Shown one piece after another: positions 7,599-20,731 of a stretch of DNA of 32,000 bases. This DNA is from Methanosphaera stadtmanae DSM 3091 (GTDB lineage Archaea; Methanobacteriota; Methanobacteria; Methanobacteriales; Methanobacteriaceae). Made by a program: the position numbers and the translations under genes. Position 1 is the stretch's first letter; every line of letters begins with the position of its first letter. The notes below the pieces were generated by a model. That model had not been told where the DNA came from. It ran no database searches and saw only the letters and a program-made list of their open reading frames with translations. Where the stretch lies: the NCBI RefSeq assembly GCF_000012545.1, contig NC_007681.1, forward strand, positions 240,001 through 272,000. The letters are read 5' to 3'.

Positions 7599-8465
7599 CT
7601 ATTTAGCATATTCTCCAATACTTGAGAACTTCTCAATAATATCTTCTTTTTTTAATTCTTTTTGTGGTATGGATGTTATGTATTTATAATCATCATAATT
7701 TTCTGCAAAAAGTAAATCAAGATAATCTATTCCATGCATAATATATGAATTTCTAATATATCTTGTTTTAAGATTTTTAGAATAGAATGTAGTATTGTAT
7801 TTAGCATCCAATTGTTGTGCAAGTATTTTGAAATTTCTTTGTATATGGTATGGCTTTAGTATGGGCTCCACAGGGCTTTCTGATTCAAAGATGTATGTTA
7901 TATGATACTTTGAATACTTTATTAAGTCTTGTGCAAGAGAGGATGGTATTATCATATGTCGTTCTTTAGATTTTCTTCTAACTGTTATTATAACATGGCC
8001 CTCTGATGTTTTATATTTCAATTGTCTTTTTTTAAGTTGTAAAGCTTCAGTTAATCTAATACCTGTATATGCAAGAAGTCTTATAATTAATGAGTCTAGA
8101 GTGTTTGTTGTATCTTCTAGAATAATACTAATTTCTCGAGGTGTAAGATAATTTATGGGTTTTTCTTTTGTTTTTAAAAGCTTTAATTTTCCCACATAGA
8201 TGTCTGTATAATCATTGAAAAATGATTTTACAATTATAAGTTGTTGATTTATGGTTTTTGGATGTATGTATCGTTTTAGAAGAAATGATTTGTATTTATA
8301 TATTGTTGGATATATGTTGTCTTGAGTTATATTTGTATTTTCTGTTTTTTTTATGAATTTAAGAAATAGATTTAGGCAACTTGAATAGGTATTTCTTGTA
8401 TTTTCATTTTTTATTTCATTTACATAGTTTAATATGACATTTTTATTTATAATCATATTCATCAC
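7599..8465 (-). CDS. Tyrosine recombinase / integrase (Xer-like, phage integrase family)
   Basis: The N-terminus is SAM-like (TRNTYSSCLNLFLKF). The box I Arg sits in LLAYTGIRLTEAL, an HxxR motif in KPYHIQRNF, and a later H (IMHG) and Tyr (DDYKYI) follow. The sequence is very divergent and no SD is visible. Confidence 0.7.
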   Translation of the reverse strand: MMNMIINKNVILNYVNEIKNENTRNTYSSCLNLFLKFIKKTENTNITQDNIYPTIYKYKSFLLKRYIHPKTINQQLIIVKSFFNDYTDIYVGKLKLLKTKEKPINYLTPREISIILEDTTNTLDSLIIRLLAYTGIRLTEALQLKKRQLKYKTSEGHVIITVRRKSKERHMIIPSSLAQDLIKYSKYHITYIFESESPVEPILKPYHIQRNFKILAQQLDAKYNTTFYSKNLKTRYIRNSYIMHGIDYLDLLFAENYDDYKYITSIPQKELKKEDIIEKFSSIGEYAK

Positions 8466-8566: not shown

Positions 8567-8601
8567 AAAAAAAAGTAATAGTTAGATTTAATTAATCTAA
8601 C
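8567..8601 (-). terminator. Hairpin plus T8 at the 3' end of the LCP-like gene
   Basis: GTTAGATT-TAATT-AATCTAAC (8581-8601, 8-bp stem) includes the stop codon. On the minus strand it is followed by T8 (the A8 run at 8567-8574). Confidence 0.45.
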
Positions 8602-9310
8602 CTAAAAGATTATTTAATCCAGAATAGGATATAAATTGTGCAAATTCAGATGCTGGAACAGCTTTTATATTTCCTTGACTATACTGTTCAATTCCTGCTT
8701 GAATAAGAGCTCCTTTATTGTTATTTTTCTTAGCAGAATCAATAATTCCCTGTGCTAAGTTTTCTATAGCATCTCCACGAGTTGCACCATTATTTGATTG
8801 ATCTTCTCTTAAAAAATCAATAGAACTTACATTTTCAACCAACTGACCATTTGAATATACAGGACCTACTGCATTAATCATAGCATCAATTGCTGTTGGT
8901 GTTACTACTAAAACCATATCTGTTTTCATACCTGTATGATATTCAACAATTTCCTGTGCAATCTTTGTCCCGTTTTCTAAGTCACTACTCCATAGTGAGT
9001 CATGTAAATACCATCTTGTAAGGCCTTCTGCTTGCATATCAGGTGTTGGAGTTAATGTTGGATGAGCAAGACCGCCTGGATATACTGGTGTCACATTACC
9101 CAGTTTTCCATTATTAACATTAACAACAAATGCCATATCAACTGAACCTACACCAGGTCTATTTTCAGAAGGATCACTACATAGTATGAGTATGTTATGC
9201 TCTCCTTTAAATGTTTTTTGTCCTTGCTGGTAATTTAGAAATAAATATACTCCAAATATTACAATAATAGCAAGTATGGCCAGTAATATTATTTTCTTTT
9301 TTGAAACCAT
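8597..9310 (-). CDS. Membrane-anchored ectodomain protein, divergent LytR-CpsA-Psr (LCP)-like
   Basis: An N-terminal TM helix is followed by blocks NILILCSDPSENRPGVGSVDMAFVVNV, MKTDMVLVVTPTAIDAMINAVGPVY and FLREDQSNNGATRGDAIENLAQGII. These occur in the same order as LCP domain blocks as I recall them. Several canonical Arg residues are not obviously retained. SD AGGATGA is present. Confidence 0.45.
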   Translation of the reverse strand: MVSKKKIILLAILAIIVIFGVYLFLNYQQGQKTFKGEHNILILCSDPSENRPGVGSVDMAFVVNVNNGKLGNVTPVYPGGLAHPTLTPTPDMQAEGLTRWYLHDSLWSSDLENGTKIAQEIVEYHTGMKTDMVLVVTPTAIDAMINAVGPVYSNGQLVENVSSIDFLREDQSNNGATRGDAIENLAQGIIDSAKKNNNKGALIQAGIEQYSQGNIKAVPASEFAQFISYSGLNNLLG

Positions 9311-9426
9311 ATAATCATCCTATATATTATTATATATACTTCTTTGAATAATATTATTAAAATATATTTACATTCTAATGATATATTAAATTAATTAATA
9401 ATAACATACATAATGTAACACAGAAC

Positions 9427-9458
9427 TATTTATTAAATCTAATATTAGATAATAAATA
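9427..9458. promoter_or_regulatory. Imperfect 32-nt palindrome in the divergent promoter region (operator candidate)
   Basis: The sequence is TATTTATT-AA-ATCTAATATTAGAT-AATAAATA. The 14-nt core is a perfect palindrome (9437-9450) and the 8-nt outer arms are complementary with a 2-nt bulge. Confidence 0.25.
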
Positions 9459-9473
9459 CATAATTATGAATAA

Positions 9474-11447
9474 TTGGAGGTAATTATCTTGAAAATACCA
9501 CACATATTTGATGAGGATATAGAAAGAATAAGGGAGCTTAGAAATGAAGTATCTGATTCAAAAAACATCTTTAAAGACAAAGTATCCTCTGTTTTAAAAA
9601 GTTCCATTAAAAATAAGAAAGTTCTATCAAAACAGGAAAGGAAAGAAGTATCTTTAAAAATATTAAATGATAATAAATCCCATGAAATACCATTAAACAA
9701 AAAACTACCTCTAGTTTCAATAATTATTAAAGCAACACATAAAAACTATCTATTAAATCTATTAAACACATTTTCTACACTGGATACATATTATTCGAAC
9801 TATGAATTAATTATAATTCATAACATGAAAGATGATCTTTTAAAATACATAGATAATAAGAAAGATGTTATTTTAGTGTCCTGTGAAGATAAATCATTAA
9901 CACAAGCAGAAAATGAGGCATCACATAAATCTAAGGGTGAATATTTATTATTTATTGATGATGATACTATACCCTTCGATGGATTTTTAAATCATATGGT
10001 AAATACAATGCTTACAAAAGAAAATGTAGGTGTTGTAGGTTCACGTTTAATTTATCCAGAATTAAAACTCAATAGAACCAAAAGTTATAAAGTTGCACAT
10101 GAAGGAATCTATTTTAGGGAAAAAAATAACCTTATAGAAACATACAATAAAAATGATGGAAGAAGATATTATACAGCAGATGAAGAAGAATGTGAAGTAA
10201 TAGCAACTTCATCAGTTGCATTTTTAGTTAAAAAATCAGTACTTATGGGTGTAGGTGGATTTAATGAGAATTATGTTGAATTTTATGAAGTAATAGATTT
10301 ATGTTTAAGACTACATAAAAAAGATTATAAAAACTATTATAATCCAAAAGTAATGTTATATCATTTTTGTCTTGAAAATCATGATGTGGATGTATTTGAA
10401 AGGGATAAAAAAATATTTATCAACACATGGAATAAATACATCTTACATAATCTATTAAAAGATAAATTATATGCAAATTATCTCTTCTCAGATAAGGCAT
10501 TAACAGTAGCATTAGTTGTTACACAAAGTGTCTGTGAAACAACAGCCGGAGACTTTTTCACAGCAATAACACTTGCACATAACTTGAAAGATTTTGGATG
10601 GAATATTAAATTCTTATCACAGCACCCCTCAAAGTATGAGAGAAATTGGTATCATTTAGATGATGATATTGATGTTGTAATATCCTTGCTTGATAGATAT
10701 AATCTAAGAAAAATAGAATCAAATAGAAAATCACTCATAAAAGTAGCATGGATACGTAACTGGTTTGAAAGGTGGATGAAACTCTCATATCTTGATGATT
10801 ATAACATAATACTCTCAAGTAGTAAAAAAGCATGTGGTGTTATTGGAGAAAAAATAGATAGAAAAGTATATTTCTATCCACTAGCAACAGATTCAACTAT
10901 TTTCAATGAAAAACTACAACCTAACAATGAATATATTTGTGATTACTGTTTTACTGGAAGTTATTGGAAGTCAGATAGAGAGATTATATCGGCTCTTTGT
11001 CCTGATAATATAGATTATACATTTAATTTATATGGAGCAAATTGGGATAAGATTCCAAGTCTTAAAAAGTATCATAAGGGTTTTATAAAATATGATGATA
11101 TTCCACAGGTTTATGCTTCTACAAAGATAGTACTTGATGATGCAAATCATGTTACACGAGGCTGGGGATCAGTAAATAGTCGTGTATTTGATGCATTTGC
11201 ATCTGGATGTTTAGTACTTACGAATGGAACAATGGGAAATACTGATTTATTTAATGGTATGATACCTGAATATCATTCAAAGGAAGAATTACAAGATAAA
11301 CTTAATTATTATATGGAACATACCCATGAAAAAGAGAAAATAGTGCAGGAGATACAGGAAATTATACTTGAAAAACACACCTATAAACACAGAGCAACTA
11401 AATTAAAAAGTCTTCTTAACTTCTATATACATAAATATACTGATTAA
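9474..11447 (+). CDS. Two-domain glycosyltransferase: GT2 domain plus C-terminal CgeB-like (DUF3880/Glyco_trans_1_2-type) domain
   Basis: The GT2 core runs LVSIIIKA...YELIIIHN...GEYLLFIDDDTIP. The C-terminus GSYWKSDREI...NLYGANW...VNSRVFDAFASGCLVLTN...KHTYKHRA looks CgeB-like. The track start is TTG 9474, but GGAGG at 9476-9480 favours TTG 9489 (MKIPHIF...). Confidence 0.75.
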   Translation: MEVIILKIPHIFDEDIERIRELRNEVSDSKNIFKDKVSSVLKSSIKNKKVLSKQERKEVSLKILNDNKSHEIPLNKKLPLVSIIIKATHKNYLLNLLNTFSTLDTYYSNYELIIIHNMKDDLLKYIDNKKDVILVSCEDKSLTQAENEASHKSKGEYLLFIDDDTIPFDGFLNHMVNTMLTKENVGVVGSRLIYPELKLNRTKSYKVAHEGIYFREKNNLIETYNKNDGRRYYTADEEECEVIATSSVAFLVKKSVLMGVGGFNENYVEFYEVIDLCLRLHKKDYKNYYNPKVMLYHFCLENHDVDVFERDKKIFINTWNKYILHNLLKDKLYANYLFSDKALTVALVVTQSVCETTAGDFFTAITLAHNLKDFGWNIKFLSQHPSKYERNWYHLDDDIDVVISLLDRYNLRKIESNRKSLIKVAWIRNWFERWMKLSYLDDYNIILSSSKKACGVIGEKIDRKVYFYPLATDSTIFNEKLQPNNEYICDYCFTGSYWKSDREIISALCPDNIDYTFNLYGANWDKIPSLKKYHKGFIKYDDIPQVYASTKIVLDDANHVTRGWGSVNSRVFDAFASGCLVLTNGTMGNTDLFNGMIPEYHSKEELQDKLNYYMEHTHEKEKIVQEIQEIILEKHTYKHRATKLKSLLNFYIHKYTD

Positions 11448-13298: not shown

Positions 13299-14255
13299 AT
13301 GAACAAATCAGATAATAAAATAACAGTTATAATTCCCAATTATAATAATCAGAAATTATTAGCAAATCTACTTGAATCACTAAAACAAGTTACATTACCT
13401 CATGATATTATTATTGTAGATAATGCATCAAGTGATAATAGTACTACATATATTAAAACTAATTTTCCAGAGATTACTTTAATAGAAAACAAAACAAACA
13501 CTGGTTTTGCTCATGCTGTAAATCAGGCAATAAAAATTGCTACAACAGATTATGTGTTACTTCTAAATAATGATACTATTGTAACAGAATCTGCATTTAA
13601 AAACATGTTTGATTTAATTAGTACTGACTCATCAATCTTTTCAGTCACATCTAAAATGATTCAAAAACATAATCCAAATTTAATTGATGATACAGGAGAT
13701 GAATATTCAATCATGGGTTGGACAAAAAAAAGAGGATTTAATCATTCTGTATCTGAATTTACACAAAGTGGTGAAGTATTTGGGGCATGTGCAGGAGCAG
13801 CACTATATAGGCGGCTTGTTTTTCTAGAAATAGGTTATTTTGATGAAAATTTTGAAAGCTATGTTGAAGATGTGGATATAAGTATAAGGGCAAGACTCTA
13901 TGGATACACTTCATACTACTGTGCTGATGCTATTATATATCACTATGGTAGTGCAACATCTGGTTCTAAATATAATTCATTTAAGGTAAGAATATCTGCA
14001 AGAAACAACATATATCTATTATACAAGAATCTATCATTATGGATGAAGATAGTTAATTTTATTTTCATAGTAATGGGTATTGTTATTAAATACTTATACT
14101 TCTATAGAAAAGGTTATGGTCAAGATTATATTGGTGGTGTATGTGAGGGTTTTAGAACAAGAAAACAATTAGATAAAATAGAAGGTGTTTCCTTTAAGAA
14201 TTATCTTAAATTAGAATTATTATTAATAAAAAATACTTTTAAATATTTATCATAA
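13299..14255 (+). CDS. Family 2 glycosyltransferase (WbbL/rhamnosyltransferase-like subgroup) with a C-terminal hydrophobic helix
   Basis: Motifs ITVIIPNYNN, IIIVDNASSDNS, NTGFAHAVNQA and VLLLNNDTIV are present. Confidence 0.85.
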   Translation: MNKSDNKITVIIPNYNNQKLLANLLESLKQVTLPHDIIIVDNASSDNSTTYIKTNFPEITLIENKTNTGFAHAVNQAIKIATTDYVLLLNNDTIVTESAFKNMFDLISTDSSIFSVTSKMIQKHNPNLIDDTGDEYSIMGWTKKRGFNHSVSEFTQSGEVFGACAGAALYRRLVFLEIGYFDENFESYVEDVDISIRARLYGYTSYYCADAIIYHYGSATSGSKYNSFKVRISARNNIYLLYKNLSLWMKIVNFIFIVMGIVIKYLYFYRKGYGQDYIGGVCEGFRTRKQLDKIEGVSFKNYLKLELLLIKNTFKYLS

Positions 14256-14268
14256 CAAAGGTGGGAGA

Positions 14269-15138
14269 ATGGATCTTTCAATTATCATAGTTAATTATTG
14301 CACATATCAACTAACAAAACAGGCAATTGATTCACTAATAGATACTATTGAGGGTATTAGTTATGAAATTATTGTAGTGGATAATGCATCAGGTGATGAT
14401 AGTTTAAATAGACTCATAAAAGACTATGAAAATACTTCTTTTGTATCATTCATTCCAAATAACAACAATGATGGTTTTGCTGTGGCAAATAATATTGGTT
14501 TTAGAGCTTCATGTGGGGACTATATTTTACTTCTTAATAGTGATGTTGTAGTAGGTGATAAAACAATTATTTCATCACTTAATTTTATTAAAAAAGATGA
14601 AACTATTGGTGCTCTGGGATGTAAAGTACTACTTCCAGATAATACTCTTGATAAGGCATGTAGAAGATCTTTTCCAACTCCTCTTGTTTCATTCTATAGA
14701 ATGGTGGGTTTATCTAGGTTATTCCCAATGAGTAAACAATTTAATAAGTATAATTTATCATATCTTGATGAAGATGATGTATACTCTGTTGATTGTATTG
14801 TTGGAGCATTCATGTTAATAAGAAAAGATGTGTATGAATTATGTGGTGGACTTGATGAATCATATTTTATGTATGGTGAAGATATAGATTTATGTTACAA
14901 TATTAAAGAATTGGGATATGATGTTGTATACTATGGTAAAAAAGAAGTAATTCATTATAAGGGGGCAAGTGGTTCAAATAAACGTTTATTATATGAATTC
15001 TATAATTCAATGAATATCTTCTATAATAAACATTATAGGGATAAGTACAATCCATTAATTAACCTAGTAATGTATATTGGTATTTGGACTATGTACTATG
15101 TTAAATTACTGATTTTTCACATAAAACAACACATATAG
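14269..15138 (+). CDS. Family 2 glycosyltransferase
   Basis: Motifs LSIIIVNYCT, IIVVDNASGDDS, NDGFAVANNIG, ILLLNSDVVV and YGEDIDLCY are present. SD GGTGGGAG lies upstream. Confidence 0.85.
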   Translation: MDLSIIIVNYCTYQLTKQAIDSLIDTIEGISYEIIVVDNASGDDSLNRLIKDYENTSFVSFIPNNNNDGFAVANNIGFRASCGDYILLLNSDVVVGDKTIISSLNFIKKDETIGALGCKVLLPDNTLDKACRRSFPTPLVSFYRMVGLSRLFPMSKQFNKYNLSYLDEDDVYSVDCIVGAFMLIRKDVYELCGGLDESYFMYGEDIDLCYNIKELGYDVVYYGKKEVIHYKGASGSNKRLLYEFYNSMNIFYNKHYRDKYNPLINLVMYIGIWTMYYVKLLIFHIKQHI

Positions 15139-15220: not shown

Positions 15221-16609
15221 ATGATACGAGAAAATCAAAATGTTTTTAATATATGTAATGTTTTACTAGATATTCTAGTATTGGTTATATCAGTGTTTTT
15301 CTTGTATCATACATCAATGATACAACATAGGTATCCAATATCATTTTATTATACAACACTACTTTCTCTATTTATATTATTAATACCTAGTTATCTGTTC
15401 TTATATTATGAATTTAAATTATACACACCTCAAAGAACAAATAGAAGTATTTTTTCAGAATCATCAAAAATTTTACAAGTAAATTTCTTTGAATATTTAT
15501 TTTTATCAGCAATGTGTTATATGGAATTTTTAAATGTTTCAGCAGATTTTCTAATTAGTTTTTTAGTAATTAATTCTATTTTAGCAGTAATAGAACGCTC
15601 TATTATTAGAGGATTTCTAAGATTACTTAGAAGTAAGGGTTTTAATATAAAATATGTTCTAGTTATTGGTGCAGGAGAAGTTGGAAGAAATCTTGTAGAA
15701 ACTATAAAAATTAACACATACTTAGGATATAAAGTTATAGGCTTTCTTGATGATAATGTAATAGGTACTGTTAATGATGTTAAGGTAATTGGAAAAATAA
15801 ATACTTTAGAATCGATACTAGATACACACATGATTGATAGAGTTATTGTAAGTATTGCACCACGTCATTATAAGACATTAGAATCTATAATGGCTTGTTG
15901 TGAAAAGATGGGTGTCCGTGCAGATATAGTTCCAGATTATTATAGGTTTATAACATCTCATCCTACTATTGAGCTCTTGGATAACATTCCATTAATTAGT
16001 GTTCGTTATCTACCCCTTGATATTTCAATTAACAAGTACTTAAAAAGAACATTTGATGTTTTATTCGTTGTTGTAGCATCAATAATATTATCTCCACTTC
16101 TTGTGATTGTTGCAATAGCAATAAAACTAACATCTCCAGGTCCAATTATATATAAACAAGAACGTGTAGGTGAGAATGCAAAACCATTTATGATATATAA
16201 ATTTAGAAGTATGAAATCTGAAAATGAATATATTGATGATAAAAAATGGACACAGAAAGATGATCCAAGAGTAACAACTATTGGTAAAATCATTAGAAAA
16301 ACAAGTATTGATGAATTACCACAATTCTATAATATTTTCAAGGGGGATATGAGTCTTATTGGACCAAGACCAGAAAGACCATATTTTGTAAATAAATTCA
16401 GAGAATCAGTACCTAAATACATGATAAAGCATCATGTTAAGCCGGGTATGACTGGATGGGCACAGGTTAATGGTTATAGGGGTAATACATCTATTGTAAA
16501 GAGAATTAAATATGATATTTATTATGTTGAAAACTGGTCTATAATGTTGGATATTCGTATCTTTTTTAAAACATTACCTGCTCTATTAAATGATAAAAAC
16601 GCATACTAA
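15221..16609 (+). CDS. Polyprenyl-phosphate hexose-1-phosphate transferase (bacterial sugar transferase family, WbaP/WcaJ/TuaA-like initiating enzyme)
   Basis: Four N-terminal TM helices are followed by a Rossmann-like VLVIGAGEVG segment. The C-terminus carries KRTFDVLFV...SPGPIIYKQERVG...FMIYKFRSM...DPRVT.IG...SIDELPQF...GDMSLIGPRPERP...KPGMTGWAQVNG. Confidence 0.9.
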   Translation: MIRENQNVFNICNVLLDILVLVISVFFLYHTSMIQHRYPISFYYTTLLSLFILLIPSYLFLYYEFKLYTPQRTNRSIFSESSKILQVNFFEYLFLSAMCYMEFLNVSADFLISFLVINSILAVIERSIIRGFLRLLRSKGFNIKYVLVIGAGEVGRNLVETIKINTYLGYKVIGFLDDNVIGTVNDVKVIGKINTLESILDTHMIDRVIVSIAPRHYKTLESIMACCEKMGVRADIVPDYYRFITSHPTIELLDNIPLISVRYLPLDISINKYLKRTFDVLFVVVASIILSPLLVIVAIAIKLTSPGPIIYKQERVGENAKPFMIYKFRSMKSENEYIDDKKWTQKDDPRVTTIGKIIRKTSIDELPQFYNIFKGDMSLIGPRPERPYFVNKFRESVPKYMIKHHVKPGMTGWAQVNGYRGNTSIVKRIKYDIYYVENWSIMLDIRIFFKTLPALLNDKNAY

Positions 16610-18209
16610 AGAAGTTGATATAATTATGAATATAAATTTTAATAAAAAGAAATATTTGCTAATTCCATTAATACTAGCAGCCATACTTTCTTTATCTGTA
16701 TTATTTAGTAGTAAATGGCCACTTAGTTGGGATATATACACTCATATCAATTATGCAATAACATATATTAATTATGGAATCACAACAGTAGATCCATACT
16801 TAAATGCACCTAATGGTAAGGAAATTGGTTATGTACCATTATTTCATATATTGTTAATAGTTATTTCATCAATTACAAATACTAGTCTTATTGATACGGC
16901 TCGTATAATTCAAACAATAACTCCAGTTATTATAACATCAATAATTGTATATGTTACATATAAAATGTATGATGAGGTAGCAGCTATCGTTGCTGGTATA
17001 TTATTAGTATCTAGTTTCATGTTTACACGATTACTACTTCCTATTCCCGAAACAATAGCATTAATCGTGTTTATAATAGGTGTTTATTTATTTTATCAAT
17101 CAACTATTGATAATAAAATGATTTATGCATTCATATCTGGATTTTTAACATTGCCTCTTATGGGAATACATTTTTCATCATGTGTCTATTATGTGATATT
17201 AATTTCAGTGTTGATGATTGCACAATGTATTATTCAAGGAAAACTTGTTGGACTTAAATCATATGGAGTTTTCTTGTTGGCATTAATTATTGTTGGACTT
17301 TGTGGAGTATTTGCTTTAATAACATATAGCCCATCACATTTATCTCAGTTTATAACTGGATTTAATTCAGTATTAAATGACCCTCTTTCATTGTTTATGG
17401 GTCAAAAAGCAATGGGATTAGAACGTTACATAAAATGTGTAGGTCTATTACCTCTAGTTTGTGGTTTTATAGGCCTTTGTTTATCTTTTAGAAATAGGGA
17501 AGTGTTATTTGTTAGTGCATGGACATTAATTGCATTTATATTTAGTAATATGCACTGGTTTGGAATACCTGTGTATACATTTAGAATGCTTATTTATCTA
17601 TTAATACCTCTTGTTATACTTGGAGGATATGGTGTTTCAAAGATATACGGGTATTTAATAAATACTAATAAAAAACAACAAGGTGTAATATTAATATTAC
17701 TCTTAATAATTCTATCATATGGTTGTGGATATATGTCAATACATGATGATTCTGCAAAGATTACATCAGCATCCACCCAAATAGGTGATTATCAAATAGC
17801 TCCACCTACATCAGATGAAGAAGAAGTAATAAATTGGTTTAAAAATGAAGATACACAAAACAAATCAATACTTACAAACAACCAATTCTTTGGTACAGTA
17901 GTATCAAGTATAGATGAAATTCCACTACATTATAAATTTGATGTATATACAAATAAATCATCACAAAAATCATCATTAAAAACATTTAATAATGAAAAGA
18001 TAGGTTATATTATATATGATAAAACACTCGTTGTAAATAATTCCTCAGATTATAGTAATCTGGAGGTAATCTCTGTAAATGGAAGTTATTATCCATCCTA
18101 TTACTTTACCAAGGAAATAACTGAAAAAAACTTCGATCAAATAAAACTAACGAACACTGAGAAGGTATTTGAAAATAACAGATTCATAATATGTAAGATA
18201 AAGTCTTAA
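16590..18209 (+). CDS. Polytopic membrane protein with a C-terminal extracytoplasmic domain; GT-C-like (ArnT/PMT/AglB-like layout), function uncertain
   Basis: About 12-13 hydrophobic helices are present, with an acidic residue in the first loop (WPLSWDIYTH). A soluble tail of about 150 aa begins APPTSDEEEVINWFKNE. No WWDYG motif is seen. The alternative start ATG 16626 would avoid the 20-nt overlap with the upstream gene. Confidence 0.55.
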   Translation: MIKTHTKEVDIIMNINFNKKKYLLIPLILAAILSLSVLFSSKWPLSWDIYTHINYAITYINYGITTVDPYLNAPNGKEIGYVPLFHILLIVISSITNTSLIDTARIIQTITPVIITSIIVYVTYKMYDEVAAIVAGILLVSSFMFTRLLLPIPETIALIVFIIGVYLFYQSTIDNKMIYAFISGFLTLPLMGIHFSSCVYYVILISVLMIAQCIIQGKLVGLKSYGVFLLALIIVGLCGVFALITYSPSHLSQFITGFNSVLNDPLSLFMGQKAMGLERYIKCVGLLPLVCGFIGLCLSFRNREVLFVSAWTLIAFIFSNMHWFGIPVYTFRMLIYLLIPLVILGGYGVSKIYGYLINTNKKQQGVILILLLIILSYGCGYMSIHDDSAKITSASTQIGDYQIAPPTSDEEEVINWFKNEDTQNKSILTNNQFFGTVVSSIDEIPLHYKFDVYTNKSSQKSSLKTFNNEKIGYIIYDKTLVVNNSSDYSNLEVISVNGSYYPSYYFTKEITEKNFDQIKLTNTEKVFENNRFIICKIKS

Positions 18210-18215
18210 ATTCAA

Positions 18216-19550
18216 ATGGAGGGAAATTACATGAATATTACAATAATTGGGACAGGATATGTGGGATTAGTAACAGGTACTTGTTTTTCAGAGATGGGAA
18301 ATGAAGTATACTGTGTGGATGTTATTGAAGAAAAAATAGAATCCCTAAAACAAGGAATAATACCAATATATGAACCAGGACTTGAAGAATTAATAAAACA
18401 TAACTACAACAATGGAAACCTACATTTTACAACAGATCTATTTGAAGGTCTATCCGATTCACAACTCTGTTTTATAGCAGTAGGAACACCTATGGGTGAA
18501 GATGGAAGTGCAGATTTAAGATATGTAAGACAGGTTGCAAAACAAATAGGACAAACAATAACTCAGGACATAATTGTAGTTGATAAATCAACAGTTCCAG
18601 TGGGAACAGCAGATGAAGTTGAAACAATAATAAATAAAGAACTTGATAAAAGAAATAAAAACTACAAGGTAACAGTTGTTTCAAATCCAGAATTTCTAAA
18701 GGAAGGAACAGCAGTAAATGATTTTATGCACCCCGAAAGGGTTATTGTTGGAACAGATGATGATTCTGCAGCAGAAATTATGAAAGAATTATATGATCCA
18801 TTTACTAAAAATCATGAAAGAATGATAATAATGGATGTACGTAGTGCAGAAATGACAAAATATGCATCAAATTCAATGCTTGCAAATAGAATATCCTTTA
18901 TGAATGAAATGGCAAATATATGTGATAAAATCGGTGCAAATATTGATAATGTACGTAGAGGTATGGGTAGTGATTCAAGAATAGGTCATAGTTTCCTATA
19001 TCCTGGATGTGGATATGGTGGAAGTTGTTTTCCTAAGGATGTTACAGCTCTAATAAAAACAGCACAAGACAATGGATTAAATCCTGTACTACTAAAAAGT
19101 GTAGAAGAAGTAAATCATAATCAGAAATATTATTTAATAAATAAGATAATTAACATATTTGGAGAAGATTTATCAGGATTAACATTTGCACTATGGGGAT
19201 TGGCATTTAAGCCTGAAACAGATGATATGAGAGAAGCATCATCAATTATAATAGTAGAAAATCTTCTAAAAATGGGAGCAAAAGTTAATGTCTATGATCC
19301 AAAGGCAATGGATGTTGCTAAAGAATTTTACTTTAAAGATTTGGATGTAAATTATTTTAGTGACAAGTATTCAGTTTTAGAAGATGCTGATGCTTTGATT
19401 TTAGTTACTGAGTGGAAAGAATTTAGAAATCCTAATTTTAATAAAATAAAATCTCTACTTAAAAATAACATAATATTTGATGGCAGAAATCAGTATAAAA
19501 ATAGTTATATGAAAAAATTAGACTTTGAATATCATGCTGTAGGAAAATAA
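18216..19550 (+). CDS. ugd: UDP-glucose 6-dehydrogenase
   Basis: Motifs MNITIIGTGYVGLVTG, catalytic GYGGSCFPKD and AFKPETDDMREA are present. GGAGGG at 18218-18223 makes ATG 18231 the likelier start. Confidence 0.9.
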   Translation: MEGNYMNITIIGTGYVGLVTGTCFSEMGNEVYCVDVIEEKIESLKQGIIPIYEPGLEELIKHNYNNGNLHFTTDLFEGLSDSQLCFIAVGTPMGEDGSADLRYVRQVAKQIGQTITQDIIVVDKSTVPVGTADEVETIINKELDKRNKNYKVTVVSNPEFLKEGTAVNDFMHPERVIVGTDDDSAAEIMKELYDPFTKNHERMIIMDVRSAEMTKYASNSMLANRISFMNEMANICDKIGANIDNVRRGMGSDSRIGHSFLYPGCGYGGSCFPKDVTALIKTAQDNGLNPVLLKSVEEVNHNQKYYLINKIINIFGEDLSGLTFALWGLAFKPETDDMREASSIIIVENLLKMGAKVNVYDPKAMDVAKEFYFKDLDVNYFSDKYSVLEDADALILVTEWKEFRNPNFNKIKSLLKNNIIFDGRNQYKNSYMKKLDFEYHAVGK

Positions 19551-19573: not shown

Positions 19574-19581
19574 TTTTTTTT
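19574..19581 (+). terminator. T8 run after ugd at the convergent junction
   Basis: The sequence is tttttttt, 24 nt after the ugd stop. It overlaps the stop codon of the minus-strand gene. Confidence 0.3.
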
Positions 19582-20731
19582 ATATTACATTGACATATAA
19601 ATGACGTTTAATATATGGTTGTCCACGTTGTGTGTATAAAACATACTGTATATCCTTACGTCCTGGTGTCATAGTTAAATTCACAGGTATCACTTTAGAT
19701 TCTTCATCTTTTAATGTGATTTTTTCCTCTGATAAGACCTTGGATGTTTCATTATGAACTTCAATTTTCATTGTATAGCTCATTTTTTTATTTTCATGAT
19801 TTGTAATATTAACTTGACTTGTTATATTTTCATTACTTGTCATATTGATATAACCATCACTACCTGCTGTTTGATTAATTCCTTCAACAACAAATGTAGT
19901 GTTTCCTTTTGTTAAATTTTCTGTTGTTATTGTAATACCTACAAGAATTAATGCTAACAATCCAATGATTGTTATAAATAGTAAGGCTCTATTTATTTTT
20001 GGATGAGTGTATCTTTGGTTATTGTTGACTTTTTTAACTCTGGAAAGATATGCTGGTATTATTATGATATATGTAAGAATTATAAGTACAATTGATGTAT
20101 GTGCCATGTTAATACTACTTTCTACTCCATAGAGAATTAGGCCTATTGTTGAAGTTATTATTAAACTTAAGAATACTGCAATTCCAACTCTTTCAAGTAG
20201 TGTTAATTCATCTTTTTTAGGAAGTAATGAATTTAATATGTAATATCCTGGAATAAATGCAACAAATGGTGCACATAGACCATACCAAACTGGAATAATA
20301 TTGAATGGTGGTATTAAAATTCCCACAAGTGTAACTAAACCTAATATTATAATAACATATAAAGATTTTTTTGTTGAATTTTCAATATCTATATTAATAT
20401 TAAAAATATCCTTATCATGTTTTGTTCTATAAACTGCAATTAGTATGAGTATAATTGAAATAATAGTCATGACAAGCAAGATACTGGTCATTGTTAACTG
20501 CATGAAGTATATTGTGATTATAGCACTTATTAATGAGAAAATAATAGCAAAACCTAATATTAATATAATTTTTCGAATTATTTGTTTAGTATTAGTTTTA
20601 GGATAAATAATAAATGTACTAACAAGACCTATAATTAGAAAATTAATAGAAAACAATCCAATCATAATATTTTGGTCTGAAGTTATACTAAAGAAACTTA
20701 TTATAAATGTTATCAATGTTATTATTCCCAA
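19580..20731 (-). CDS. DUF1616-like archaeal membrane protein (multi-TM N-terminal part plus extracytoplasmic beta-rich C-terminal domain)
   Basis: Seven or more TM helices are present. The C-terminal block TTFVVEGINQ...ITNHENKKMSYTMKIEVHNET...VIPVNLTMTPGRKDIQYVLYTQRGQPYIKRHLYVNV resembles the DUF1616 pattern as I recall it. The track start is TTG 20731. A possible SD-led ATA start at 20764 is discussed in the findings. Confidence 0.6.
   Translation of the reverse strand: MGIITLITFIISFFSITSDQNIMIGLFSINFLIIGLVSTFIIYPKTNTKQIIRKIILILGFAIIFSLISAIITIYFMQLTMTSILLVMTIISIILILIAVYRTKHDKDIFNINIDIENSTKKSLYVIIILGLVTLVGILIPPFNIIPVWYGLCAPFVAFIPGYYILNSLLPKKDELTLLERVGIAVFLSLIITSTIGLILYGVESSINMAHTSIVLIILTYIIIIPAYLSRVKKVNNNQRYTHPKINRALLFITIIGLLALILVGITITTENLTKGNTTFVVEGINQTAGSDGYINMTSNENITSQVNITNHENKKMSYTMKIEVHNETSKVLSEEKITLKDEESKVIPVNLTMTPGRKDIQYVLYTQRGQPYIKRHLYVNVI

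Follow-up and report, generated by a model that had tools for sequence, protein, structure and literature searches.

A membrane-anchored DUF4012 protein of LytR-CpsA-Psr fold beside a glycan-export cluster of Methanosphaera stadtmanae: a candidate ligase for the pseudomurein wall

Pseudomurein-walled methanogens include the main species of the human gut and the rumen. A locus of Methanosphaera stadtmanae DSM 3091, in which a small membrane protein is encoded beside a sugar-polymer export cluster, raises the question of which enzyme could decorate this archaeal wall. Our analysis covered a window of 32,000 nucleotides (positions 240,001-272,000 of contig NC_007681.1), to which the coordinates below refer unless another locus is named; the source genome is a single contig of 1,767,403 bp with one DUF4012 gene, the gene considered here. 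A sequence-only reading had taken its product for a divergent LytR-CpsA-Psr (LCP)-like protein that ligates a polymer to pseudomurein. We confirm the observation and support the structural reading; the ligase function is plausible but unproven.

The walls of Methanobrevibacter contain neutral sugars and teichoic-acid-like levels of phosphate, and the glycopolymers behind them have not been identified (PMC2812497). The literature thus gives a candidate ligase a job. Literature searches on pseudomurein with LytR or LCP, and on DUF4012, found no paper proposing such a ligase, and the DUF4012 protein is absent from recent pseudomurein gene catalogues. The entry OG0000169 of PMC11915815 is ruled out as the DUF4012 protein, being a zinc peptidase with a signal peptide.

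Topology, fold and predicted active site

The DUF4012 gene (8597-9310, minus strand) starts with ATG, 4 nt downstream of a Shine-Dalgarno-like AGGATGA motif, and its open reading frame, Pfam match, structural model and fold match describe a type II membrane protein of 237 residues. The hydrophobic stretch I7-L25 (9236-9292, minus strand), read from the sequence, is preceded by K4-K6, and in the AlphaFold2 model a single long helix (residues 4-34) is followed by an alpha/beta domain; the protein is therefore assigned an N-in, C-out orientation. The single N-terminal transmembrane helix and ectodomain described in the sequence-only reading agree with the frame, the hydrophobic stretch and the modelled helix. 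The extracytoplasmic domain (residues 36-237; 8600-9205, minus strand) carries D46, E49, R51, D58, Y77-P78, H103-D104, R168 and R178, which were picked out by conservation and hhalign. PF13196 (DUF4012) matched residues 36-171 over profile positions 2-143 of 144 (E 2.4e-30; 106.4 bits against a gathering cut-off of 28). PF03816 (LytR_cpsA_psr) did not match the protein at E up to 1, an NCBIfam search with it gave no match, and a profile search of the whole M. stadtmanae genome found no PF03816 gene.

Nevertheless, the structural comparison retrieved LCP enzymes, backing the LCP-like ectodomain of the sequence-only reading. The AlphaFold2 model, built from 24 homologues, had a pLDDT of 85.9 and a pTM of 0.80. 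In a Foldseek search of the PDB with this model, LCP structures filled the first 30 ranks (E 7e-9 to 3e-4, probability 1.00), and the matches below rank 30 were at chance level except for one LCP entry (PsrSp, rank 39). VIA-align superposed the model on residues 220-428 of Cps2A with Z 12.9 and an rmsd of 3.1 A over 179 aligned residues; all 26 of 26 LCP entries scored Z 8.2-12.9, against 4.2 for the best unrelated fold. The DUF4012 alignment was also compared by hhalign with eight canonical LCPs, which are PF03816 proteins from other Methanobacteriales, giving a probability of 81% and E 1.2e-5 over 179 columns. This profile-profile alignment reproduced the three motif blocks of the sequence-only reading: NILILCSD pairs with NILLLGVD, VDMAF with TDSIT, and TDMVLVVTPTAIDAMINAVGPVY with IDYYILINFEEFKNIVDTLGGIYV. 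It also places R168 and R178 at the RxR and GD..R arginines of LCPs.

Sequence searches against the PDB with the single protein, an archaeal profile, a mixed archaeal and bacterial profile, and P0210 matched no LCP. The tie between DUF4012 and LCPs is detectable only through fold and profile-profile methods. Some DUF4012 paralogues have sub-threshold PF03816 matches at their DUF4012 coordinates (20-22 bits against a cut-off of 24.6). In the metagenomic protein P0210 (263 residues), overlapping stretches match PF03816 (E 1.4e-4) and PF13196 (E 3.8e-4); by these profile scores, P0210 may bridge the two families. A few DUF4012 homologues are named "LCP family protein" in the JGI automatic annotation; the resemblance was thus already latent in the databases. 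The modelled fold and the alignments strongly support the DUF4012 protein as a minimal membrane-anchored protein of the LCP fold, from a divergent branch.

Residues were mapped with a TagT alignment and the roles described in PMC7831098, and conservation was counted over 104 family members. D46 (TagT D82, Cps2A D234; kept in 103/104) and D58 (Cps2A D246; 104/104) correspond to Mg2+ ligands of LCPs. R168, at the first Arg of RxR (Cps2A R362; 102/104; the alignment register has a possible two-residue offset), and R178, at the Arg of GD..R (Cps2A R374; 103/104), correspond to phosphate-binding residues. The retention of these four residues in 102-104 of the 104 members argues for a live enzyme. 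E49, R51, Y77, P78, H103, D104 and N214 are conserved at a similar level (100-104 of 104; R51 in 100).

Other arginines of LCPs are missing, as the sequence-only reading had cautioned for the RsDT and PRD blocks. The Arg of RsDT is Ser56, and the PRD block is replaced by the Arg-free T74-P-V-Y77-P78-G-G, which hhalign does not place confidently and in which Y77 and P78 are invariant. The PRD Arg (TagT R118, Cps2A R267) is absent from the DUF4012 family, and the second RxR Arg (TagT R219) aligns with Asp or Glu. In LCPs, the PRD Arg is the proposed activator of the MurNAc C6-OH acceptor (PMC7831098); R51 might stand in for it. Since the Asp pair, R168 and R178 are conserved while the PRD Arg and the second RxR Arg are gone, the Mg2+/pyrophosphate donor side appears to be kept and the acceptor side to be remodelled, on an alignment of moderate confidence.

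Glycan locus, related loci and distribution

The DUF4012 gene is transcribed divergently from the first glycosyltransferase of the locus, as had been claimed from the sequence. This gene (9474-11447, plus strand) encodes a two-domain enzyme with GT2 and Glyco_trans_1_2 matches in Pfam. Its listed TTG start at 9474 overlaps a GGAGGT motif, and TTG 9489, 7 nt past that motif, is likely the true start. On the same strand follow a Wzm permease (PF01061; 11626-12468), a Wzt ATPase (PF00005; 12492-13241), two GT2 glycosyltransferases recognized by Pfam (13299-15138), an initiating phosphoglycosyl transferase (PGT) of the WcaJ type, a maker of polyprenyl-PP-hexose (15221-16609; PF02397, 240 bits), a polytopic membrane protein of 539 residues (16590-18209), and a UDP-glucose 6-dehydrogenase (UGDH; Pfam; 18216-19550) for uronic acid supply. 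Wzm and Wzt form an ABC exporter of the polysaccharide/teichoic-acid type, with galactan Wzm/Wzt and TagH as best NCBIfam matches, all below the equivalog cut-offs. The PGT scores 497 bits with TIGR03023, above the equivalog cut-off of 411; as a WcaJ equivalog, it implies that the lipid-linked donor is a pyrophosphate, the donor class of LCPs. With the initiating PGT, glycosyltransferases and Wzm/Wzt, the set for an ABC-transporter-dependent glycopolymer pathway is complete in the locus.

The polytopic protein encoded at 16590-18209 matched no family in a Pfam search. TIGR04154 (archaeo_STT3) matches it at residues 61-138 only (E 8e-6), and PMT_2 occurs in 12% of the members of its nearest Atlas cluster. 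It is probably GT-C-like by these weak similarities, and it is conserved after the PGT across Methanosphaera loci.

The AT-rich divergent spacer (9311-9488) contains the 14-nt palindrome ATCTAATATTAGAT (9437-9450). The palindrome noted in the shared promoter region is thus present; however, a perfect palindrome of at least 14 nt arose in 348 of 2000 shuffles (17%) of the 163-nt spacer, which has 12% G+C, and the corresponding spacers of 22 related loci do not contain it. Being at chance level and not conserved, it is not meaningful and is ruled out as an operator.

On the other side of the DUF4012 gene, an insertion separates it from an amidohydrolase gene: a weak tyrosine-recombinase-like frame (7599-8465, minus strand; Phage_integrase, 27.3 bits, cut-off 27.1). 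The amidohydrolase and DUF4012 genes are directly adjacent in several other Methanosphaera loci and have a different intervening gene in others. DUF1616 membrane proteins recur in glycan loci (19580-20731, minus strand, in the window; L094:6919-8685, plus strand), and in one Methanobacterium clade a DUF1616 gene lies immediately 3' of DUF4012.

Gene contexts were derived from open reading frames called in 100 loci, labelled by BLAST against the window genes and Methanothermobacter neighbours, and were placed on a maximum-likelihood tree of the 104 family members. The window's clade (27 rows, SH-aLRT 99) comprises Methanosphaera and some Methanobacterium. DUF4012 stands head-to-head with the two-domain glycosyltransferase in nearly all 27 rows, followed in Methanosphaera by Wzm-Wzt-GT2-GT2-PGT, and a glycan gene lies within two genes in 24 of them, the other three being short contigs or contig ends. 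In the sister clade (M. oryzae and relatives), Wzm-Wzt-GT2-GT2-PGT-DUF4012 runs on one strand beside hemL-cbiC, a site that looks ancestral. A homologous Wzm/Wzt-GT2-GT2-WcaJ cluster adjoins DUF4012 in two different arrangements, the set being conserved in both Methanosphaera and Methanobacterium, and the co-occurrence with Wzm/Wzt glycan loci, proposed as a check on the sequence-only reading, is borne out by repeated linkage to Wzm/Wzt-PGT clusters. In the next clade, that of Methanothermobacter and others, the order hemL-c15-DUF4012-Mmp4-uppS-tatD puts DUF4012 two genes from uppS, and a separate clade has UGDH-DUF4012-DUF1616-GT. Two further clades, with many family members from many genera, lie in housekeeping contexts, beside pilus genes or argJ-argB/asd-secFD.

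Several smaller observations concern these loci. In many genera, a zinc-ribbon protein of 190-220 residues is encoded beside DUF4012 (L024:8918-9487, minus strand; L069:7054-7716, plus strand); it has an N-terminal CxxC...CxC, a charged coiled region, a C-terminal membrane anchor and no Pfam family. A clade of N-extended paralogues (about 333 residues, with an extension of about 95; L031:9587-10588, L081 and L085:5620-6618) has an unrelated context of metallophosphoesterase, ion channel and Nre genes. Tandem DUF4012 duplications occur in L103 (three copies), L038 and L110, and Mmp4-uppS-tatD adjoins those of L103 and L038.

In the order Methanobacteriales, 179 of 201 genomes carry DUF4012; for the phylum Methanobacteriota the figure is 236 of 266. 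The family spans 26 of 29 genera, often in two or three copies. The phylum set of 266 genomes covers four families, with Methanopyrales and other archaeal phyla outside it; the one genome that represents the fourth family gave no match. It is missing from 22 of the 201 order genomes, including the complete single-contig genomes G043 and G087. Among 1.84 billion representative proteins, 31 clusters match the DUF4012 protein at E < 1e-30, and the weaker matches beyond them are long bacterial proteins. Species-representative genomes contributed 80 named loci, of which 78 bear the labels Methanosphaera, Methanobacterium, Methanobrevibacter, Methanothermobacter, Methanobacteriaceae or Methanobacteriota, and the other two come from one metagenome-assembled genome (MAG) labelled Methanomicrobiales. 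A restriction to the pseudomurein lineage, another check proposed from the sequence, thus holds for the labels of all named homologues apart from this MAG. The two outcomes named beforehand as refuting the sequence-only reading, absence of an LCP fold or homologues equally common in S-layer-only archaea with no tie to glycan loci, were not observed. The MAG (JBNGDB01, Methanomicrobiales archaeon E05-015) has two DUF4012 genes, one with the synteny tatD-uppS-Mmp4-DUF4012-c15 typical of Methanobacteriales (L063) and one in the context of the N-extended paralogues (L081); its taxonomic label is probably wrong. A Bac_transf PGT is carried by about 154 of the 179 genomes with DUF4012 and is missing from 14 of 20 named genomes without it, although related genomes are non-independent observations. 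The Methanothermobacter-type thermophilic families have DUF4012, with a Bac_transf PGT in 0 of 14 genomes.

Of 201 Methanobacteriales genomes, 30 encode canonical PF03816 LCPs (also seen at L013-L020); the thermophilic families have none. This count weakens the premise that an LCP would be out of the ordinary in a wall without MurNAc. A wall ligase of bacterial type is also noteworthy in itself in archaea that have no murein. The canonical LCPs are TagU-like (E 2e-41 to 6uf6), with IPRD, RxR, GD..R and RxQ intact. In two Methanobacterium genomes, the canonical LCP gene is the immediate neighbour of the PGT gene in a UGDH-Wzm-Wzt-GT2-GT2-PGT cluster (L121:9157-9984 in G064; L122:16054-16896 in G053); since this cluster is homologous to that of the window, the two LCP-fold proteins occupy equivalent positions. 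A complementary distribution of the two is ruled out, as several genomes have both and about 20 have neither; their co-occurrence indicates that they are not simple substitutes.

Proposed function and its alternatives

The LCP fold and the position beside a sugar-polymer export cluster make the DUF4012 protein a candidate wall ligase, and the best candidate that we have for an enzyme decorating archaeal pseudomurein. To the observed fold, conserved residues, topology, distribution and gene linkage, we add catalysis, donor and acceptor by inference. In the proposed pathway, the WcaJ-type transferase would start the glycan on polyprenyl phosphate, giving polyprenyl-pyrophosphate-sugar; the GT2 enzymes and the two-domain glycosyltransferase would extend it in the cytoplasm, and Wzm/Wzt would export the lipid-linked glycan. 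At the outer face, the DUF4012 protein would bind the pyrophosphate through Mg2+ (D46, D58) and R168, R178 and perhaps R51, and would transfer glycan-1-phosphate onto a hydroxyl group on the pseudomurein strand, plausibly the C6-OH of GlcNAc or GalNAc, releasing polyprenyl phosphate. That the protein is a phosphotransferase moving an exported polyprenyl-PP-linked glycan onto pseudomurein is a reading to which we give an even chance.

Several findings weigh against it: the PF03816 match and any sequence match to solved LCPs are absent, the PRD Arg is gone, the second RxR Arg is replaced by Asp or Glu, and many family members lie in housekeeping contexts or in thermophiles that have no PGT. The lost acceptor-side arginines of wall-ligating LCPs would also fit an LCP-fold ligase acting on a surface protein or lipid. 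Protein glycosylation by LCPs is documented, with Actinomyces oris LcpA modifying the protein GspA (PMC7831098, PMC6381275), and a Methanobrevibacter clade adjoins pilus/secretion and adhesin-like genes. We consider such an acceptor unlikely; homologues are confined to pseudomurein-walled lineage labels (one Methanomicrobiales-labelled MAG apart) in 236 of 266 genomes, and a canonical wall-type LCP stands at the equivalent spot beside a homologous cluster. The same pattern of donor-side residues retained and acceptor-side ones lost could instead describe a hydrolase, a polyprenyl-pyrophosphate or PP-glycan phosphatase recycling or releasing the lipid carrier at the outer face. LCP enzymes have pyrophosphatase activity in vitro (PMC7831098), and DUF4012 lies near uppS in many genera and is present in families without a Bac_transf PGT. 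However, the invariant polar residues Y77, H83, H103, D104 and N214 suggest a second substrate site, and DUF4012 repeatedly closes export-type glycan clusters, the place expected of a ligase, so that we rate the hydrolase as low as the ligase with another acceptor. The GT-C-like protein encoded at 16590-18209, assigned from its remote similarities, could make the final transfer instead.

The near-universal presence of DUF4012 in the order, and its place beside uppS in thermophilic families without PGT clusters, would also suit a role in building pseudomurein itself, such as handling the undecaprenyl-PP-linked disaccharide-peptide precursor; published surveys of these archaea have turned up neither a transglycosylase nor a PBP homologue (PMC2812497, PMC10117817). 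This role is weakened by the complete genomes without the gene (G043 and G087, among the 22 of 201 lacking it), and the fourth family's only genome lacks it as well. LCP chemistry would leave a phosphodiester, of which pseudomurein strands have none, and DUF4012 is not among the pseudomurein-specific genes of PMC11915815; we regard this role as very improbable. Scarcely less doubtful is a non-catalytic scaffold, sensor, or chain-length or export accessory of glycan clusters. Bacterial DUF4012 proteins, loosely annotated in this way, lack both Asp residues yet are conserved in EPS clusters (PMC5412050), and our literature search found no activity reported for any DUF4012 protein; against this, the Asp pair and three Arg kept in 100-104 of 104 archaeal members are hard to explain without catalysis.

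A broader form of the pseudomurein-ligase reading takes the short archaeal DUF4012 as a pseudomurein-specific LCP with an ancestral donor site and a rebuilt acceptor site (Tyr-Pro, His-Asp), which would be the general enzyme coupling undecaprenyl-PP-linked material, perhaps nascent strands as well, to pseudomurein throughout Methanobacteriales. We know of no transglycosylase for nascent pseudomurein strands. We offer this generalization as a long shot.

The catalytic residues named for this candidate ligase and the defined donor pathway make the attachment of polymers to the wall of pseudomurein methanogens testable. DUF4012, which has no assigned function in bacteria or archaea, would gain its first mechanistic hypothesis. 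If the pseudomurein-ligase reading is true, a chemically different archaeal wall would follow the wall-assembly logic of Gram-positive bacteria. Glycans on the surface of Methanosphaera and Methanobrevibacter also bear on immune recognition and on anti-methanogen vaccines or inhibitors.

Comparison with known systems

The DUF4012 protein shares with the LCP phosphotransferases (Cps2A of Streptococcus pneumoniae, TagT/U/V of Bacillus subtilis and LcpA of Staphylococcus aureus) the alpha-beta-alpha fold (Z 11-13), an N-terminal anchor with an outside domain, and an Asp pair at 12-residue spacing with two pyrophosphate arginines. These enzymes likewise adjoin a glycan cluster that is ABC-exported and primed on a pyrophosphate lipid. 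In contrast, the DUF4012 protein has about 15% identity to them and no PF03816 match, and its domain is shorter (about 200 residues), without an accessory or LytR_C domain. The PRD Arg has given way to an invariant Tyr-Pro and the second RxR Arg to an acidic residue, an HDS motif stands at the KxN position of LCPs, and the wall of the host is free of MurNAc.

The canonical LCPs of Methanobacteriales share with DUF4012 the order, size, topology and adjacent UGDH-Wzm-Wzt-GT2-GT2-PGT cluster. Unlike DUF4012, they are TagU-like, keep IPRD and are limited to 30 of 201 genomes, with M. stadtmanae among those that lack one.

Bacterial DUF4012 proteins, such as BL105A_0406 of the Bifidobacterium longum EPS cluster, belong to the same Pfam family, have E49, R51, G55 and the L-[HR]-D-S-x-W motif in common with the archaeal form, and adjoin a priming transferase in polysaccharide clusters. 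Their domain is embedded in proteins of 480-1000 residues, whereas the archaeal form is a stand-alone domain of 235 residues. Both Asp residues are missing from the bacterial proteins (Asn at 46, Gly or another residue at 58), while the archaeal form keeps the LCP Asp pair. Because the bacterial proteins are long and lack both Asp residues, the archaeal branch of DUF4012 is the more LCP-like one.
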